From an uncultured delta proteobacterium (GTDB lineage: Bacteria; Desulfobacterota; BSN033; UBA1163): a stretch of 64,000 nt of DNA. The translations under genes and the position numbers were made by a program. This document shows positions 24,803-55,148 of this stretch, one piece after another (positions within the stretch are counted from its first letter, which is position 1; every line of letters starts with the position of its first letter). The notes beneath the pieces were generated by a model, which worked only from the letters and a program-made list of their open reading frames with translations, ran no database searches and was not told the origin of the DNA. The stretch is taken from positions 102,947-166,946 of the forward strand of contig CAVSVC010000052.1 of the NCBI GenBank assembly GCA_963731045.1, given 5' to 3'.

Positions 24803-25032
24803 TCTTTCACCTCATCTTTCGTAAGTCGCAAGGCGTAGGCGTGAGGGGTTTTAGACTCCTTCAACGACTTGCGACCGGTGCGTGCCCCGCAGGTCCCGGC
24901 TTTCAGGGAGGTCAAGGGGCGCAATATCATAGTGAGCTTACCTTACCGGGAAGCCCTTCAACACACTTAGGACCGTCGAACGGCCCCGCCCTTTAGGGTG
25001 GAGAGCTTCACTTGCCACTGACGACTTGCGAT

Positions 25033-29011: not shown

Positions 29012-29077
29012 GAAATCCTCCTAAACTGCATTGAGCATAGAGCAAAGGGCAGTCAGATGTCAATCTGAGAAACCTGC

Positions 29078-29176
29078 AACTGGAATAATGGAACAGTGGA
29101 ATGTTGGGTTAATCCAAGAATCTTTTAAAATCCGGAATCTCATCGGTTCCATCTTTCCAACATTCCATCTTCATTC
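29078..29176. repeat. octamer-repeat hairpin element (TGGAATAT-type), copy E1
   Basis: ctggaataatggaacagtggaatgttggg ... ccaacattccatcttcattcc. It is nested between GCATAGAGCA-type arms. Confidence 0.7.
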
Positions 29177-35687: not shown

Positions 35688-35700
35688 AACCTACCCGACT

Positions 35701-35887
35701 GGAAGACGGGAATATTGGAATATTGGAAGAATGGAATATTGGGTCAAAAAAAGAATCCAGAGAAAACAAGACGCTTTGTTCTTGTCGCTCGTTACTCCAC
35801 TATGCCCGTATTCCTTTTCTTTCTTCATTCCATCTTTCCATTTCTTCTGTATCATGGTTTTCCCATTGTTCCAGTATTCCATTCTTC
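35701..35887. repeat. octamer-repeat hairpin element (TGGAATAT-type), copy E2
   Basis: ggaagacgggaatattggaatattggaagaatggaatattgggtc ... ttccagtattccattcttccatcattcc. Confidence 0.75.
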
Positions 35888-35889
35888 CA

Positions 35890-37221
35890 TCATTCCGTTT
35901 TTCGTTTCCTTCCTCTTGCGAGCAGGGCACAGGCCTGAGAGGCTGCGCCGCTTGCCTGGGTAACCGTGTCGGGAATATCCTTGGGGCCCTGACAACACCC
36001 CGCGAGAAACACCCCCTCCACGCTGCTGAGGGTCGGATCGAGGCCGGGTGGTTCACCATAGAAGCGATCCGGCGATCTTTCCAGCCCGAGGATCTCCTTC
36101 AAGACATCCTCCTCTTTCCGGGGGGTGAGCCCCGCAGCCAGGACGACCAGGTCCGCTTCCAGTTCGAAAGGTTCGCCCAGAAGGGTGTCTTCTCCCCTGA
36201 CGATCAGTTTCCCGTTTCTCCGGTAGATCTCCGAAGGGTTGGCCCGCCGGTAAAGGACCCCTTCCTTTTGAACCCTTTCATAGAATTCCTCAAAACCCTT
36301 TCCAAAGGCCCTGACGTCCATATAAAGGACCGTGATCCGGGCGTCAGGGATTTTTTCCCTGAGAAGATGGGCCTGTTTGGCCGTAGCCATACAGCAGACC
36401 CTGGAACAGTATTCATTGCCCACGGTCTTGTCCCGTGATCCCACGCAGTGGATGAAGACAACCTCTCCGGGCTTTCTTCCCTCGATCAGGATTTCTCCTT
36501 TCGTGGGGCCCGAGGCGGAACAGAGCCTCTCGAATTCGAGGCCATGAAGAACGTTGGGATAGATCTTGTAGCCGAATTCGGGCTTGCGCCCCGGATCGAA
36601 GAGATCGAATCCCGTGGCCACGATGATGGCTCCCACGTCGATCTCGGTGATTTCTTCCCGGTCTTCGAAGAAGATCGCCCCTGCCTTGCAGGCGTCCACA
36701 CAGGTTTTCCTGCATTTGCCCCTGCTGAGCCACAGGCAGCTTCGGGGGTCAATCGCAGCTTTCAACGGCACGGCCTGGGGAAAAGGGATGTCAATGGCCC
36801 TTCGTGGGACCAGGCCCTCATTGAATTCAGAAGGAACGCCCTTCTTCAACGCACAGGCTTCCATGCAATCCCCGCAGCCCGTGCAGCGGTCCCGGAGAAC
36901 ATAGGTGGGTTTCTTTTTGACCTTGATCTGGAAGTGTCCGGCGCTTCCCCGGACCTCCGCCACTTCCGCACAGGTGTGGAGCCGGATCTTCGGATGATTG
37001 GCCGTATCGACCATTTTGGGTGTAATGATGCAGGCTGAGCAGTCGAGAGTGGGAAAGGTCTTATCCAGCTGGGCCATATGGCCGCCAATGGAAGAGCTCC
37101 TTTCGACCAGGTGGACGGTGAATCCTTTCTCCGCCATGTCGAGGGCCGCCTGCATCCCGGCGATGCCGGCGCCGATCACCAGAGCTTCGGGAATCACATG
37201 CTGCAACTGTTCGGTCTTCAT
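35890..37221 (-). CDS. HdrA-like FAD/FeS oxidoreductase, short paralog
   Basis: VIGAGIAGMQAA FAD motif, CTGCGDCMEAC ferredoxin motif, and shared ..HCVGSRDKTVGNEYCSRVCCM.. block with HdrA1. It lacks the N- and C-terminal Cys clusters of the longer paralog. Confidence 0.8.
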   Translation of the reverse strand: MKTEQLQHVIPEALVIGAGIAGMQAALDMAEKGFTVHLVERSSSIGGHMAQLDKTFPTLDCSACIITPKMVDTANHPKIRLHTCAEVAEVRGSAGHFQIKVKKKPTYVLRDRCTGCGDCMEACALKKGVPSEFNEGLVPRRAIDIPFPQAVPLKAAIDPRSCLWLSRGKCRKTCVDACKAGAIFFEDREEITEIDVGAIIVATGFDLFDPGRKPEFGYKIYPNVLHGLEFERLCSASGPTKGEILIEGRKPGEVVFIHCVGSRDKTVGNEYCSRVCCMATAKQAHLLREKIPDARITVLYMDVRAFGKGFEEFYERVQKEGVLYRRANPSEIYRRNGKLIVRGEDTLLGEPFELEADLVVLAAGLTPRKEEDVLKEILGLERSPDRFYGEPPGLDPTLSSVEGVFLAGCCQGPKDIPDTVTQASGAASQACALLARGRKRKTE

Positions 37222-37231
37222 AGCCTACTCA

Positions 37232-37409
37232 GAGTGGAAAAATGGAATATTGGAATAATGGAAAAATGGAAGAATTGGAATATTGGGTTCCCAAAAAGAA
37301 CCGGGAGAAAAGAAGTGTTCTTTTCTTTGTTACCCATCATTCCAGTATTCCACCGTTCCAATATTCCTTTTCCACATCATTCCATCATTCCATCATTCCA
37401 ATCTTCCAG
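37232..37409. repeat. octamer-repeat hairpin element (TGGAATAT-type), copy E3
   Basis: gagtggaaaaatggaatattggaataatggaaaaatggaagaattggaatattgggttccc ... cccatcattccagtattccaccgttccaatattcc...cattccatcattccatcattccaatcttccag. Confidence 0.75.
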
Positions 37410-37414
37410 TTCAT

Positions 37415-38569: not shown

Positions 38570-38600
38570 CGCTCGCTTCTCCAAGGAATAATGAAAGAAC

Positions 38601-38727
38601 ACTGGAATAGTGGAATCTGGAATATTGGAATCATGGGATCATAAGAGAGTCTTAAAACAGTTCATTGTCTTGTTCTGGATTTTCTGCTGTACCCAATATT
38701 CCAATCTTCCATTATTCCAATTTTCCT
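38601..38727. repeat. octamer-repeat hairpin element (TGGAATAT-type), copy E4
   Basis: actggaatagtggaatctggaatattggaatcatggg ... cccaatattccaatcttccattattccaatttt. Confidence 0.7.
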
Positions 38728-38733
38728 TTCCTT

Positions 38734-39714
38734 TTATTTTTGTTTCATTCCCTTGATCTTTTCTTTGAGCACGGGAATGATCTTGAACAGATCCCCTACG
38801 ATGCCGTAGTGGGCGAAGCTGAAGATCGGCGCCTTGGGATCCTTATTTACGGCGATGATCGTTCCGGCCCCTTTCATGCCTGCCATATGCTGAAAGGCGC
38901 CGCTGATTCCAAGGGCGAGATACACCTTGGGCTTCACAGTCTTTCCGGACGTTCCCACCTGACAGGCCTTCGGAAGCCACTTCTTGTCCACCACAGGTCG
39001 GGAACAGGAGAGGGTTCCCCCCACGGCGTCAGCGAGCTCTCTCACAAGGGGCAGGTTTTCGGGATCCTTGATTCCCCTTCCCACGGAGATCAGGATATCT
39101 GCCTGTGTAATGTCCACCTCGCCCGCTGCGGCCTCCACGTACTGGAGAAAGCGCTTTGGAAGAAGTTCGTCGGTCAGAGGAGAAGGCAACGGGGTGATCC
39201 GACCTTCCATGGGACCATTTTCCGAGGAAGAGAAGGCCCCCGGCCGGACTGTGGCCAGGTAGGGACCCGGTTTCCGGAAGGAGACCCTGGCGTTCATCTT
39301 CCCGGCATAAAGCTGGCGGGTCACGGAGAGGGATTCCCCCTCCACATCGACGGCGATACAGTCGGTCGCCAGGGGAATTCCCATGGACGCGGCAAGGCTT
39401 GGCGCAAGGTCCATTCCCATGCCGGTGTGCCCCATCAGCGTCAGGAAGGGTTTCTTCTCCGACAGGAGCCCGGTCAAAACTTTCTGATAGGTTTCAGAGT
39501 TGAAGACGTCGAGGCGGTCGTCTTCAATGAGAAAGACCTGGTTTGCTCGTGATTTGAGCGCCTCTGCGAAATGTCCGACCCCTTTTCCAAGGAGGGCAAC
39601 ATGAATTTCCCCTCCCACATCCCTCGCCAATTGTCTCCCTTTGGAAACCATCTCCCACGTGATGTCCCTCATCTCCCCGGTTCGATGTTCGGCGACAACG
39701 AGAATCTCCTTCAT
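38734..39714 (-). CDS. etfA: electron transfer flavoprotein alpha subunit (EtfA/FixB)
   Basis: 326-aa product with the FAD-binding C-terminal domain (..VYLALGISGAFQHMAGMKGAGTIIAVNKDP..). Confidence 0.9.
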   Translation of the reverse strand: MKEILVVAEHRTGEMRDITWEMVSKGRQLARDVGGEIHVALLGKGVGHFAEALKSRANQVFLIEDDRLDVFNSETYQKVLTGLLSEKKPFLTLMGHTGMGMDLAPSLAASMGIPLATDCIAVDVEGESLSVTRQLYAGKMNARVSFRKPGPYLATVRPGAFSSSENGPMEGRITPLPSPLTDELLPKRFLQYVEAAAGEVDITQADILISVGRGIKDPENLPLVRELADAVGGTLSCSRPVVDKKWLPKACQVGTSGKTVKPKVYLALGISGAFQHMAGMKGAGTIIAVNKDPKAPIFSFAHYGIVGDLFKIIPVLKEKIKGMKQK

Positions 39715-46741: not shown

Positions 46742-47311
46742 CTACTTCTTGGGAAATACCCCTTCGAAGGGGACAAAAACGTCGCCTTTGTCGGTAAGGA
46801 AGACGGCCATCCCCTCGGTGACCTTGATTCCGAAGGAAAAGTCACCGATCTTCTCATACCAGTTTTTGAGGACGCCCGCAGGTGTGAGATTCAGTGCTTG
46901 AAGTTTTGAGCCCTGGGTCACCGCCAGTTTCCCCAAAACGACCGCTGAATCAAGGATGCTCACGATTCGATACTGGCTTGTCGTATCCGGTGGAAAGTAG
47001 ATCCTGTCATAAGAAACAGGCACATTCAGTTCCACGTAGGAACCTGGAGTCACTTCGAAAGAAAATGCGAACTTCATGTTGTCCAACAAAACATTGTATC
47101 CACTGGGATTGTTGATATGGAATACAAAGGCCAAGGCCAACGGGATACGGGCCGGCGGATCGGCCCAGGGAAATGACCCGGCCACTTCAACCCTTTCGAG
47201 CATGATCTTGGGTTTTCCGGCCACATCGGTCGGCAGCAGCCCTGGCTTGCAGGCCACAAGAGCCGAGATCGCAAAGGACAGCACGAACATCATCAGGAAT
47301 AATCTTCGCAT
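46742..47311 (-). CDS. lipoprotein, function unknown
   Basis: Signal peptide with lipobox (MRRLFLMMFVLSFAISALVAC) at the internal ATG. No recognisable domain. Confidence 0.55.
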   Translation of the reverse strand: MRRLFLMMFVLSFAISALVACKPGLLPTDVAGKPKIMLERVEVAGSFPWADPPARIPLALAFVFHINNPSGYNVLLDNMKFAFSFEVTPGSYVELNVPVSYDRIYFPPDTTSQYRIVSILDSAVVLGKLAVTQGSKLQALNLTPAGVLKNWYEKIGDFSFGIKVTEGMAVFLTDKGDVFVPFEGVFPKK

Positions 47312-47405
47312 AAAAACCTCCTTGCCTGTCTTTCGTGGTAAGGCACAAGTCGTTAGGCGACATTCTTGAAAACCACTTATGAGTTGCGGCTGACGATTCA
47401 CGGGA

Positions 47406-48243
47406 TTAAGTGAGCCATCTCTTCCTTCGTTTGTAGTGCTTCACCTGCCGGAAGCTCTTTCGTTCTCCGATATCCGAGAGACCTAAGTAGAAATCCCGGA
47501 TATCCGGGTTCTCTTTCAACTTCTCGGCGGTATCATGCATCACCAGCCTGCCGTTCTCCAGAACGTAAGCATACGCGGCCACGGTCAGGGCCAATTTCAC
47601 ATTCTGTTCAACCAAGAGCAAGGGGATTCCCTCCTCCCTGTTCAAGCGGGTGATGATTTCGAAGATCTCCTTGATCAGGAGGGGAGCCAGGCCCATGGAG
47701 GGTTCATCGAGAAGCATCAGTTTGGGTTGGGCCATGAGGGCTCGGCCAATGACGGTCATCTGCTGTTCGCCGCCGCTGATATAACCTGCCATGGACATGG
47801 CGACGCTCCACCAGTCTTGGGAAGTAACGATAGACCATCTCGAGCCTTTCTTTCTTGGCGGAACCGGTTCCCCTCAGGTGGGCTCCCACCCGAAGGTTCT
47901 CTTCCACCGTGAGATGTTCAAAGACTCTTCTTCCCTCAATGATCTGGAAGATGCCGCGTCCGGCGATTTCTTCTGCATAGAGGTGATGGATCTTTTCTCC
48001 CATGAACTCAATGCTTCCGTCGGTGACTTCGCCGTCTTCGTGCCTCAGCAGGCCTGAGATCGATTTGAGCGTGGTGGACTTGCCCGCCCCGTTGGCGCCG
48101 AGAAGGGCAACAATCCTTCCCTTCGGCACTTCGATGGAAACCCCTTTGAGCACCAGAATCACTTCGTGATACATGACCTCAACATTGTTGAGTCTCAGAA
48201 TACTCTCCGGAGCATTTGAAACATCAGACCTCTTTTGTTCCAA
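47406..48243 (-). CDS. livF: branched-chain amino acid-type ABC transporter ATP-binding protein (LivF-like), frameshifted (~47800)
   Basis: N-part (..LLGANGAGKST..FPRL) in ORF 47704..48294 and C-part (MAGYISGGEQQM..LLLDEPSMGLAP) in ORF 47406..47798. They join as ..RRHVMAGYISGGEQQM if one C of gtCC is removed. A TTG start at 48243 is preceded by GGAGGAGG. Confidence 0.75.
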
Positions 48244-51816: not shown

Positions 51817-51837
51817 AAAAAACCTCCAGATAGAATA

Positions 51838-51910
51838 CCGGAATATTGGAATGGTGGAATGCTGGAATATTGGAAAACCACTATTCCATTCTTCCGATAT
51901 TCCATTGCTC
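51838..51910. repeat. octamer-repeat hairpin element (TGGAATAT-type), copy E5
   Basis: ccggaatattggaatggtggaatgctggaatattggaaaacc | actattccattcttccgatattccattgctcc, with almost no loop. Confidence 0.7.
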
Positions 51911-51916
51911 CCGATC

Positions 51917-53851
51917 TTATTGCGGCACTTCCAAGACCTTGAGATCGGTCTTGATGTGGATGACCCTTCCGTCTTCGTAGGTGATATCGGTGTCCATATG
52001 GATAAGGTCCACATCCGAATAAAGGCCCCTCACGATCTCTTTGTACCTCTCTTCCACAAAGGCTCTCCGCAGTTTCCGGGTCCGGGTCAATTCATCATCG
52101 TCCGCATCGAACTCCTTGTAGAGGTTGACGAACTTCCTGATCCGGGCGATGGGAGGAAGATCCCGGTTCATTTTGCTGATTTCACTTCCGACCAGTTCAT
52201 AGACTTGAGGCATCTGGGAGAGTTCAGTATAACTGGTGTAGGTAATGTTCCGGTCTTCCGCCCATTTTCCCACAACGGTATAATCGATACACATGACGCA
52301 AACAACATAAGGCCTGCCGTCTCCAATGGCCCACACGTCCCTGATATAGGGGCTGAACTTCAGGCGGGTTTCCAGATACTGGGGAGCGAATTTCGTTCCG
52401 TCCTTCAAGGTCATCACATCTTTCGTCCGGTCAAAAACGACGAGGTGGCCGTCCGCGTCCAGGAATCCTGTGTCTCCGGAGTAGAGCCAGCCATCCCGGA
52501 GGGCCTTCGCGGTTTCCTCGGGCATCTTATAGTATCCCTGGAAAACGGAGGAACTTTTCGAGATGATCTCCCCGTCAGGGGTGATCTTCACTTCCGTTCC
52601 GGGAATCGATTTGCCCACCGTGTCAAACTTGATATCGTTGTCATAATGGAGGACGGAGATCCCCGCGATCTCCGTCTGGCCATAGATCTGCTTTAGGTTC
52701 ACCCCGATGGCATGGAAGAAGCGGAAATGATCCGGCCCCATGGCCGCCCCGCCCGTGTACGTGTATCGGATCCTGGAGAGACCCAGGTGGTCCTTCAGTT
52801 TCTTATGAACGGCGAGGTAGGCAAGGTAATGAAGGGCCTTCCAGTGCCAGGGAACGGATTTTTTCTGGAATTCCAACTCGGCCACGTGATACCCGATCTT
52901 CATGGCCCACTCGTAGGCCTTCCGCTTGGACCAGGAGGAATCCAGGTACTTCACCTGCACGGTCCGGACCATCTGCTCATAAATCCGGGGCGGGGCGAAC
53001 ATGACGTGAGGCCCGATTTCTCTGATGTTCTCCTGGGCCGTTTCCGGTTCCTCCGGAAAGTTGAGCGTAAAGCCTGCGTGGAGTCCGCAGGAGATCGACA
53101 TCATCTGTTCCCCGATCCAGGCAAAGGGAAGGTAGGAGACAAAGTCATCCGATTCGAAATAGGGATCGACCCGCATCAGGTTCTGCCCCATGGTCAACAT
53201 ATTGTAGTGACTGAGTAGGGCCCCTTTGGGCAGGGAGGTGGTCCCGGAGGTATAAAAGAGGAGACAGATGTCGTCTCCCTTTCCTTTCATCACCAGGTCT
53301 TCAAAAAGGGCGGGCTCCTTCCTGTCGAGGTCCTCACCCATTCTCATGACTTCCTTAAGACTGATGAGGATCGGGTCCTGATATCCCCTCATCCCTTTCG
53401 GGTCGTCCCAGAGCATCTTCTTGAGCTTGGGGCACTTCGATTTGATGGTCAGGCACTTGTCCACTTCTTCCTGACCCTCTCCCACCATCAGCTTGGCATC
53501 GGAGTGATCGATGATGTATTGAACTTCGTCGATCAGGGAATCCTGAAACAACCAGACCCCGACGGCTCCGACACACATGGCAGCCATCTCGGCCCAGAGG
53601 GCTTCGGGCCGGTTGTCACCGATCATGGCCACCTTGTCGCCCCTTTCGAGGCCGAGAGAGACCATTCCCAGGGCGATCCGCTTGACATTCTCATAGTACT
53701 GCTTCCAGGTGATCGGGACCCAGATCCCAAATTCCTTTTCCCTCATGGCCACTTTCTTGTCCCCGTATTTCCCGGCAGACTGCAGAAAGAGCTTGGGGAT
53801 GGTCAGGTCTTTTGTGATCTCCAGGTTCTTCCAGTTATCGACGCGAGACAT
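51917..53851 (-). CDS. long-chain fatty acid-CoA ligase (AMP-forming acyl-CoA synthetase)
   Basis: 644-aa product with ..YTSGTTSLPKGA.. AMP-binding motif and ..GWLYSGDTG... It is embedded in the Liv-type ABC operon, and its start overlaps the livG stop. Confidence 0.85.
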   Translation of the reverse strand: MSRVDNWKNLEITKDLTIPKLFLQSAGKYGDKKVAMREKEFGIWVPITWKQYYENVKRIALGMVSLGLERGDKVAMIGDNRPEALWAEMAAMCVGAVGVWLFQDSLIDEVQYIIDHSDAKLMVGEGQEEVDKCLTIKSKCPKLKKMLWDDPKGMRGYQDPILISLKEVMRMGEDLDRKEPALFEDLVMKGKGDDICLLFYTSGTTSLPKGALLSHYNMLTMGQNLMRVDPYFESDDFVSYLPFAWIGEQMMSISCGLHAGFTLNFPEEPETAQENIREIGPHVMFAPPRIYEQMVRTVQVKYLDSSWSKRKAYEWAMKIGYHVAELEFQKKSVPWHWKALHYLAYLAVHKKLKDHLGLSRIRYTYTGGAAMGPDHFRFFHAIGVNLKQIYGQTEIAGISVLHYDNDIKFDTVGKSIPGTEVKITPDGEIISKSSSVFQGYYKMPEETAKALRDGWLYSGDTGFLDADGHLVVFDRTKDVMTLKDGTKFAPQYLETRLKFSPYIRDVWAIGDGRPYVVCVMCIDYTVVGKWAEDRNITYTSYTELSQMPQVYELVGSEISKMNRDLPPIARIRKFVNLYKEFDADDDELTRTRKLRRAFVEERYKEIVRGLYSDVDLIHMDTDITYEDGRVIHIKTDLKVLEVPQ

Positions 53852-54644
53852 ACAAATCCTCAGCCTCCCCGAGATAGGCTTTCACCACCTGGGGATTGCC
53901 CTGGACCTCTGAAGGGGTTCCGTCCGCGATCTTCTCGCCGAAATTCAGAGCCATCACCCGGTGGGAGATATCCATCACAACACCCATGTCATGCTCTACC
54001 AGGACACAGGTCGTCTGCCAGCGTTCCTCTTCATTGATGTCCAGAATAAACCTGGCCATGTCCTCCACCTCCTCGAGGTTGAGGCCTGCCAGGGGCTCAT
54101 CCAGGAGAATGATTTTCGGGTTCAAGGCAAGGGCCCTGGCCAGTTCCACCCGTTTTTGAAGCCCGTAGGGAAGCATGCCCACCACCTTGTCCCGAATGTG
54201 TTCGATCTCGAGAAGATCGATGATCTCCCGTTCGATAAAATCCCTGTGCTCGATCTCTTCCCTCGCCGTCTTTCCCAGGTAGAAGGTGCCGTTGAAAAGC
54301 CCTGTCTTGAGGTGGATGTGGCGTCCCAGGCGGATATTGTCGAGGACCGTGGTCCCTTTAAAGAGTTCGATCTTCTGGAAGGTTCGGGAGATTCCCTTTA
54401 TGGCCCTCCGATAGGGCTTCAGACGGGTAATGTCCTCTCCATCGAAGAAGATCTGCCCTTTCTGGGGATGGTATAGTCCGTTAATGCAATTCAGGAGAAC
54501 CGTTTTCCCTGCGCCATTGGGACCGATGATGGAGAAGATTTCGCCTTTCTTCACTTCAAAACTGATCCCCAGAAGGGCCTGGACACCTCCGAAAGCCATG
54601 TGAAGATTGCTGACCTTGAGCTGGACTTCCTGGGTGAGGGCCAT
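53835..54644 (-). CDS. livG: branched-chain amino acid-type ABC transporter ATP-binding protein (LivG-like)
   Basis: ..IIGPNGAGKTV.. Walker A, ..ILLLDEPLAGLN.. Walker B. The ATG at 54644 (MALTQEVQLKVSNLHMAFGG) is preceded by AAAGGAG. Confidence 0.85.
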   Translation of the reverse strand: MALTQEVQLKVSNLHMAFGGVQALLGISFEVKKGEIFSIIGPNGAGKTVLLNCINGLYHPQKGQIFFDGEDITRLKPYRRAIKGISRTFQKIELFKGTTVLDNIRLGRHIHLKTGLFNGTFYLGKTAREEIEHRDFIEREIIDLLEIEHIRDKVVGMLPYGLQKRVELARALALNPKIILLDEPLAGLNLEEVEDMARFILDINEEERWQTTCVLVEHDMGVVMDISHRVMALNFGEKIADGTPSEVQGNPQVVKAYLGEAEDLYVSRR

Positions 54645-54734
54645 CAGGGACTCCTTTCTCGTGAGGCGACCGGCGGATTCCAAAAACACATTTTAACCTC
54701 CTGAACAGTCCCTCGCAAGAAATGGAAATTTGTG

Positions 54735-54768
54735 AAAAAAACCCTCCCGTGGTCGGGAGTCTTCCCAC
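54735..54768 (-). terminator. intrinsic terminator / attenuator in leader of livG-acyl-CoA synthetase operon (minus strand)
   Basis: Minus strand reads CTCCCGACCACGGGAGGG followed by TTTTTTTCAC, about 100 nt upstream of the livG ATG. Confidence 0.6.
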
Positions 54769-55148
54769 CCTCAGGATATCACGGGTCTTCCCCCTCGGGT
54801 TACTCCGGGACCTGATTGGCGCTGAAAATCCCCGTCACGCTATGAATCACACAACCGTAGGGGTTTGGCAGGAAAGGATTTAGTGAAGCTCTCCGCCCTA
54901 AAGGGCGGAGCTTCCCGGTAAGGTACTCTCACTTATATTGTGTCCCTTCACCCCGGTCTGAAGACCGGGGTGAAGGGACACGGGCCGGCCAAATGAGCAA
55001 GAAAATAGGCTATTTAAACCTGATTAGCATTAGTTCTTCCCCTTGTCAAGAGGAAACAGGCGATTGCCGTCAAATGTGAAAAGAATCTTTTTAATTCACT
55101 GATGGGAAGAGAATGAGAATCGATCCAAGAGGTTCCGAAACGTTAAGG

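Follow-up and report, generated by a model that had tools for sequence, protein, structure and literature searches.

The long leader of a livG/acyl-CoA ligase operon in an uncultured delta proteobacterium is probably a composite that includes an inserted PATE-like element

The livG operon and its upstream spacer

The operon studied here lies on the minus strand of a 64-kb window (64,000 nt, the whole stretch of DNA that was analysed) and begins with a livG-type ABC ATPase gene (Table 1). Pfam and NCBIfam scans identified, in this order after livG, genes for an AMP-binding fatty-acid-CoA ligase, two permeases, a periplasmic binding protein and a second ATPase, in agreement with the initial annotation, which had described a livG and acyl-CoA synthetase transporter operon behind a leader of about 400 nt (here 401 nt). 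A 504-nt spacer, housing the promoter and all three hairpins described below, separates livG from a minus-strand ORF coding for a membrane protein of 120 aa (55511-55149), whose weak resemblance to ArnF/ArnE scored below the cut-offs of the same scans. The ATG of livG (54644-54642) is found 376 nt from the -10 element of the promoter that we have named P1 and 90 nt past the T run of hairpin 3, and both this start codon and its Shine-Dalgarno sequence are kept in the relatives. The short ORF that overlaps the livG start, of uncertain status, was absent from the relatives' leaders inspected.

Table 1. Features of the livG leader, and a second copy of the repeat element, in the coordinates of the window.
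Feature	Position	Strand	Basis
CACATT plus TTACGTAA-type palindrome box, degenerate copy; ahead of the promoter in relatives	55061-55078	-	Anchored comparison of orthologous upstream regions
P1, sigma-70-type promoter: -35 TTGACA (55049-55044), 17-nt spacer, TG (55029-55028), -10 TAATCA (55026-55021)	55021-55049	-	Sequence
First native leader part, ending in TTGGC (54992-54988), mutated counterpart of the TTGAC target	54988-55014	-	Alignment with relatives; flank statistics of 44 copies
PATE-like non-autonomous element, 105-nt short-form copy with hairpin 1 (54981-54940) and hairpin 2 (54914-54885)	54883-54987	-	BLAST, nhmmer, 44-copy alignment, empty versus filled sites
Native single-copy leader part, 238 nt	54645-54882	-	No second copy in genome; fold z -0.92
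Intrinsic-terminator-like hairpin (hairpin 3): 6-bp stem (5 G-C), ACCA loop, GG, U7	54735-54759	-	Pattern scan, local folds
P2, weaker promoter-like site TTGCGA-17-TAAAAT, downstream of the terminator	54690-54718	-	Consensus match only (9/12)
15-codon upstream ORF with AGGAGG Shine-Dalgarno; TGA stop shares one base with the livG ATG	54644-54691	-	Sequence
livG-type ABC ATPase gene, first of the operon	53835-54644	-	Pfam and NCBIfam scans
PATE-like element, second, long-form copy, antisense between two minus-strand genes	24875-25011	+	Repeat and profile searches

A promoter kept among relatives

The minus-strand promoter had been proposed from its TTGACA-N17-TAATCA arrangement, and apart from a small offset in the coordinates the proposal stands. 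In order to assess its conservation we have used 58 orthologous livG upstream regions, 26 from genomes of relatives and 32 from metagenome contigs. The position of the promoter is kept in 49 of the 58, where the arrangement TTGACA-N17-TGnTAAT is also present upstream of livG, with TTGACA located 100-440 nt before the start codon and a TGnTA-type -10 at the right spacing. P1 was not listed by a consensus scan because the scan demands a T at the last -10 position. The comparison makes P1 a well supported candidate for a genuine promoter about 375 nt upstream of livG, and transcription of the leader would start there.

Ahead of many of the 49 promoters there is a T run together with a CACATT...TTACGTAA box. 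In the relatives CACATTTTACGTAAACTGG is located some 10 nt before the -35; the window retains CACATT without the palindrome. In many relatives this 10-bp palindrome, of the TTTACGTAAA type and with CACATT ahead of it, precedes the livG promoter by a constant distance (seen upstream of the -35 in loci L014, L019, L021, L022, L029-L032, L040, L046, L062, L123, L125, L126 and L128). It is likely to be an operator or activator site, one that is degenerate in the window. A profile of the promoter region made from 18 relatives retrieved only generic T-rich/TTGACAA promoters from the own genome, so that no regulon could be defined in this way.

The folding signal resides in two hairpins

The first hairpin after P1 had been described as perfect, with 16 bp at 54936-54972. 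It is real and perfect indeed, and this description is too short, the actual structure having 20-nt perfectly complementary arms on the minus strand (54981-54962 and 54959-54940) that fold into 19 bp with a UUCA loop (dG -40.8 kcal/mol, z -9.9, none of 200 shuffles as good). Hairpin 2, placed earlier near 54878-54910, is found slightly shifted at 54914-54885, with 12 bp and a 2-nt bulge (dG -19.0, z -3.7, again none of 200 shuffles as good). Both hairpins are far beyond chance. The stem of hairpin 3 (54759-54744) is weaker, with dG -10.6 and z -1.9, and was equalled by 9 of 200 shuffles.

A way to locate the source of the folding signal is to dissect the leader into its parts. The whole leader of 401 nt folds much better than its shuffles (z -5.49), and so does the 105-nt repeat element that carries hairpins 1 and 2 when taken by itself (dG -66.1, z -8.55). 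The 238 nt of native leader left without the element have a z of -0.92, with 40 of 200 shuffles folding equally well or better. All of the unusual folding energy of the leader comes from the repeat element, that is, from hairpins 1 and 2. The suggestion that the three hairpins make up a single ligand- or protein-responsive leader is not sustained by these data, two of the three being part of an inserted repeat copy and the rest of the leader folding as its shuffles do. Hairpins 1 and 2 lack a U tract behind them and so probably do not terminate transcription, and the 19-bp perfect duplex of hairpin 1 could influence the processing or the stability of the RNA.

Hairpins 1 and 2 belong to a dispersed repeat

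When the 504-nt spacer was compared by BLAST with its own assembly (4.34 Mb in 65 contigs, 82% complete), 65 matches were obtained, and those that were non-self all fell within spacer positions 156-278, which correspond to hairpins 1 and 2 with their intervening sequence. Spacer positions 279-504, the terminator included, had no non-self match in this assembly and are in this sense single-copy. A more sensitive BLAST of the own genome detected 105 segments in 74 loci, and nhmmer with a profile built from 14 long copies also gave 105 matches (E<0.01), 63 of which cover at least 90 profile positions. Outside the own genome, the family is found in 31 of the 54 genomes examined from the taxonomic family, and at genus level in 13 of 21, the window's own genus being included in this count, and the copy number is very uneven between genomes, from a handful to more than 120 among the first-look candidates.

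The architecture of the element became apparent from the alignment of 44 near-full copies. The 5' end starts with CGGCAC and is followed by a first hairpin whose foot is conserved and whose tip exists in several unrelated sequence versions, the stem being always kept. A conserved A/T-rich linker comes next, then an optional internal module of ca. 30 nt in most long copies and more in a few, and the 3' part consists of a second conserved hairpin and the terminal GCTTCAC. The copy in the livG leader is a short form from which the optional module is absent. With a span of 105-200 nt, the copies offer too little room for a transposase gene.

Some long copies (e.g., 28220-28420 in contig C21 and 14217-14381 in C48) have extra internal modules of 30-70 nt that are themselves repeat-like (...CCCTTCGACAC...GTCGAA...), and in the copy at 26523-26636 of C52 a module similar to the CCCTTCGACAC-type one takes the place of hairpin 1. 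Around the second copy of the window there is an 11-nt direct repeat, ACGACTTGCGA, at 24861-24874 and 25020-25030, the right one not immediately adjoining the element; it may be part of a different repeat in that spacer and not represent a target duplication.

The element inserts 3' of a fixed target

The five bases that precede the element are TTGAC or a near variant. In the 44 aligned copies positions -4 to -1 of the 5' flank are T in 39, G in 36, A in 40 and C in 43. A comparison of filled and empty sites allowed us to attribute these bases to the target. In two related metagenomic operons (L178 and L058) the element is present in reverse orientation, exactly 3' of TTGAC in the leader. The leader of L055 is nearly identical apart from this and runs through the same TTGAC with no interruption; there is no duplication at the filled sites. 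As the empty L055 also has the TTGAC, this flank is target and not element. The boundaries rest on this clean empty site, the two filled sites and the window's own site. In L058 and L178 the copies are found about 25-130 nt before livG, at one shared TTGAC site and in a part of the leader that differs from the one interrupted in the window, so that the leaders of livG operons have been struck at two places.

In the window, the leader matches short islands of the relatives on either side of the element (...TTTTCTTGCTCATT / element / TAAATCCTTTCC...), and the uninterrupted counterpart is found in L024 (...TTTTTTCGTCCGAAT TAAATCCATTCC...). The element has no terminal inverted repeats, its 5' end CGGCACGTG... 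and its 3' end ...GAGAGCTTCAC being not complementary in the 44 copies; the distance to the nearest end is 6 nt for hairpin 1 (5' end) and 2 nt for hairpin 2 (3' end). With respect to the neighbouring ORFs, on what is a crude ORF map, 22 copies have the orientation of both neighbours and 21 are opposite to both, the others being mixed (10 and 9) or at a contig end (1).

Kinship with PATEs and IS200/IS605 elements

These features taken together indicate that the repeat behaves like a transposase-less, PATE-like element of the IS200/IS605 type, with a transposition mechanism presumably of the same kind. The PATEs of Haloquadratum walsbyi are transposase-less derivatives of IS200/IS605-type insertion sequences, as described in an excerpt of PMC3119063, and in that excerpt they share with the window element a non-coding length, the lack of terminal inverted repeats and a palindrome near each end. 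The same excerpt (PMC3119063) also describes for PATEs, as found here, no target duplication, many heterogeneous copies and internally deleted 'terminal-only' forms. Unlike these archaeal PATEs, the element resides in a bacterial host, has no sequence relation to them, and no parent IS with matching ends was found for it. The family defined here, PATE-like and with a TTGAC target, is previously unnoted.

Among the better known members of the group, IS608 and ISDra2 move by single-strand 'peel and paste' transposition carried out by a Y1 HUH transposase, and ISDra2 has the target TTGAT. IS608 is typified by inserting 3' of a fixed short sequence, TTAC in its case (from an excerpt of PMC5027513). 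The resemblance of the window element to both includes insertion directly 3' of a fixed short sequence (here TTGAC), asymmetric ends, subterminal hairpins and the absence of direct repeats. It differs from both in that it lacks a transposase gene. The lagging-strand orientation bias expected of IS200/IS605 elements was not detectable: 37 of 63 copies are on the locally G-rich strand (p 0.21), in a test limited by unordered contigs and by confounding of the skew with gene strand (r 0.69). REP elements, which have a conserved GTAG head, are another possible comparison. With REP/BIME (RAYT) and BOX-type repeats the family has in common that it is short, hairpin-forming, modular, intergenic and of high copy number; unlike REP/BIME, it has no conserved GTAG head, its two ends differ, its insertion is site-specific and it is not found beside the RAYT-like gene of the own genome.

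A parent element was also looked for. In the own genome (82% complete) there are four Y1-transposase loci, all with other ends, and none of them is an autonomous element that shares the ends of the repeat. In five relatives, all with incomplete assemblies, both ends of the element flanked none of the 30 loci examined out of 49 Y1 matches, and the TnpB zinc-ribbon domain PF07282 was absent from the five genomes searched. Left- and right-end matches paired at a distance of 150-4000 nt gave in the own genome one weak pair only, on contig C39. A locus on C11 that had been considered as an IS with separated ends was ruled out, since it consists of separate fragments in different spacers. One of the four loci, at ca. 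6000-7000 of contig C46, is a RAYT-like Y1 transposase gene between inverted repeats that start with GTAGGGTGGATC, a classic REP-RAYT arrangement. The element does not share in this arrangement, the gene being flanked by a different, unrelated repeat, with no copy of the element detected there by nhmmer. Two nearly identical IS200-type copies with their own end hairpins are present on C40 (ca. 47300-47950) and C14 (ca. 1000-1500); their stem CCGCCC/GGGCGG coincides with that of the right-end hairpin of the element, and loops and flanks differ.

The native leader and its terminator

The native part of the leader (54645-54882) found no homologue by BLAST in 40 relatives: among the matches listed (150 of 191) none covers it, and the similarity begins just 15-18 nt ahead of the livG ATG. 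A search of 54 other genomes of the family, none of them congeneric, found no homologue either of the native leader, the terminator and the 120 nt preceding it included, with two matches of chance size (25 and 20 nt).

A canonical terminator about 100 nt before livG had been part of the initial annotation, and as a predicted terminator, 90 nt before the ATG, it is borne out. Hairpin 3, with its stem at 54759-54744 and T7 at 54741-54735, has the sequence characteristics of an intrinsic (Rho-independent) terminator, and its stem has a pair probability of 0.8-0.95 in local fold ensembles. A loose terminator pattern is not found beyond chance in the surrounding 2 kb (3 found, 2.6 +/- 1.8 expected). 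Sites that follow a strict pattern (stem of at least 6, at least 4 G-C pairs, T6) are rare, with 87 on both strands of the 4.3 Mb of the own genome, hairpin 3 being one of them. Of the 87, 40 fall within crude ORFs and 47 outside them; 19 sites follow an ORF by no more than 100 nt and 19 of the 47 are leader-like, several of these last resembling regulatory leaders by eye, one of them with TPP-riboswitch motifs. By a simple pattern, terminator-like sites were detected in only 3 of 25 leaders of relatives (L017, L036 and L039) and in only 4 of 28 metagenome leaders, in two of these four right at the 5' end of the leader. The terminator of the window is a plausible one, single-copy and lineage-specific, and it could act as a regulated attenuator, as a constant brake or as an insulator ahead of a second promoter.

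In terminator riboswitches and attenuators (TPP riboswitch, trp leader) an intrinsic terminator likewise separates an operon's promoter from its first gene. Unlike these, the leader shows no conserved aptamer, Rfam match, leader peptide with regulatory codons or significant antiterminator. The Rfam scan proposed in the initial annotation gave no match at gathering score in the 64-kb window; with E relaxed to 10, the leader region matched families that are eukaryotic or unrelated and no others, all on the palindrome, in accordance with the earlier remark that no known riboswitch consensus is evident. Five repeat loci and seven loci of relatives gave nothing usable (SurA in L084 reached 30 bits for a cut-off of 100). 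The only candidate for a leader peptide before the terminator is a GTG ORF of 16 codons, with neither a Shine-Dalgarno nor a codon bias; the 15-codon ORF, which does possess a Shine-Dalgarno, comes after the terminator. In an alternative fold the 5' arm of the terminator pairs with an upstream GGGG run (-49.6 vs -50.0 kcal/mol), and when the upstream sequence was dinucleotide-shuffled 300 times an equally good one arose in 22% of cases.

Leaders of the relatives

Several short islands recur across the leaders of the family, namely a run of G close to the 5' end, AATCC(A/T)TTCC, and CACGAG before the Shine-Dalgarno. One sub-clade of nine sequences (L047, L051, L028, L053, L056, L055, L058, L059 and L178) has a leader domain of ca. 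170 nt, 83% identical and without an Rfam match, in which a GGGUGG run on the 5' side and a CCGCCC run on the 3' side form a long-range helix. In this domain 7 of 29 pairs have changed on both sides, compared with 2.8 +/- 1.2 in shuffles (none of 500 reach 7) and with 1-4 in slid-partner controls, a count that was made on a model-fitted alignment of few, closely related sequences. The covariation is suggestive and does not bear directly on the window. Searched against 94 sources, the covariance model of this domain added only two sequences to its seeds, and it had no match in the window at E up to 1. Covariation among homologous leaders, a check that the initial annotation had put forward, gives no support to its proposal for the window, whose native leader has no homologue in the 40 relatives or the 54 family genomes and is missed by the sub-clade model.

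Interpretation of the leader

The probable explanation for all these observations is that the leader is a composite of four parts: a conserved promoter, an inserted PATE-like element, a native leader and a terminator. According to this model the conserved sigma-70 promoter P1 would start the long 5' leader of the livG/acyl-CoA ligase ABC-transporter operon, and early in this leader a 105-nt non-autonomous element would have been inserted just 3' of a TTGAC-like site. Hairpins 1 and 2 would be the left-end and right-end hairpins of the element, signals for transposition at the DNA level that would remain passive in the mRNA and act as no sensor. What remains, 238 nt of native leader, would be unique to the lineage and not unusually structured, and the terminator before livG would most likely lower or gate the read-through from P1 and from the unrelated ArnE/F-like gene upstream. 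Since hairpins 1 and 2 belong to a mobile repeat, a new riboswitch of the kind suggested initially is not supported; the lack of an Rfam match and of homologues of the native leader in 54 genomes, together with an antiterminator that 22% of the shuffles match, lends no support to riboswitch-type control either. As for a regulated attenuator, the terminator may be one, and beyond its presence nothing argues for it.

The native leader by itself (ca. 54882-54760) could still be a lineage-specific sensor, either a riboswitch or a protein site, that toggles the terminator in response to a fatty acid, acyl-CoA or another signal. The position of a canonical terminator between a conserved promoter and the first gene invites this reading, and so do the rarity of strict terminators in the genome (19 of 47 are leader-like, and strong ones in leader position often look regulatory by eye) and the near iso-energetic alternative fold. 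We consider it unlikely, for that fold is as good in more than a fifth of the shuffles, the leader has no Rfam match at gathering score, a z of only -0.92, no convincing leader peptide and no homologue in the 54 family genomes, and terminator-like sites are found in few of the relatives' leaders (3 of 25 and 4 of 28). It is quite unlikely that the operon is transcribed from P2, with the terminator as an insulator and P1 giving only a short non-coding RNA of ca. 275 nt. P2 agrees with the consensus at 9 of 12 positions, has its hexamers 17 nt apart and is located directly after the terminator, and the ArnE/F-like gene upstream has no terminator of its own before P1, but P2 is a mere consensus match, in a scan that yielded 2 sites for 1.2 expected; it was not a conserved feature in the relatives inspected, and the promoter that the relatives do keep is P1, with leaders that mostly lack a terminator.

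Two further readings concern conserved RNA. The long leaders of the livG/acyl-CoA ligase operon family might together constitute an undescribed cis-regulatory RNA, of which the window would have a rearranged version, the transposon having split its 5' hairpin and the terminator having replaced the output of the relatives; this reading draws on the recurring islands and on the sub-clade domain with its covariation, and we regard it, with both these parts, as distinctly improbable. Far less credible is that the repeat family is not mobile DNA but a set of structured regulatory RNAs or protein-binding sites that contribute to the control of the operon. Its hairpins are kept through compensatory variants in the 44 copies, the copies inspected are intergenic (33 of 63 are clear of any crude ORF), and there is a precedent in the genome of Geobacter metallireducens, where multicopy intergenic hairpin sequences were read as regulatory RNAs, as stated in an excerpt of PMC2700814. 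Against this, copies occur in both orientations to the flanking genes (22 against 21), their presence is patchy with a number that varies among genera, and the empty and filled orthologous sites have exact boundaries, with a conserved 5' flank that is target DNA. Mobile DNA remains the preferred reading of the repeat.

The composite model removes a false riboswitch candidate and illustrates a general trap, namely that the most striking 'structured leaders' of this lineage can be transposon ends. Since such ends can mimic structured leaders, repeats should be masked before hunting for RNA motifs. Literature searches found, among the matches listed, nothing relevant on repeats in Syntrophus, Smithella or Syntrophaceae, nor on acyl-CoA or fatty-acid riboswitches. 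The PATE-like family with its TTGAC target, as defined here, extends across an uncultured group of anaerobes that likely oxidise fatty acids, and the concrete point that remains at this locus is a lineage-specific predicted terminator in the leader of an operon for fatty-acid uptake and activation.

The operon contains a repetitive hairpin of another kind, located after the acyl-CoA ligase gene and ahead of the first permease gene (51828-51913) and made of tandem TGGAATAT-type octamers. Arrays related to these octamers are found elsewhere in the window at 29062-29124, 35689-35916, 37224-37411 and 38595-38738.
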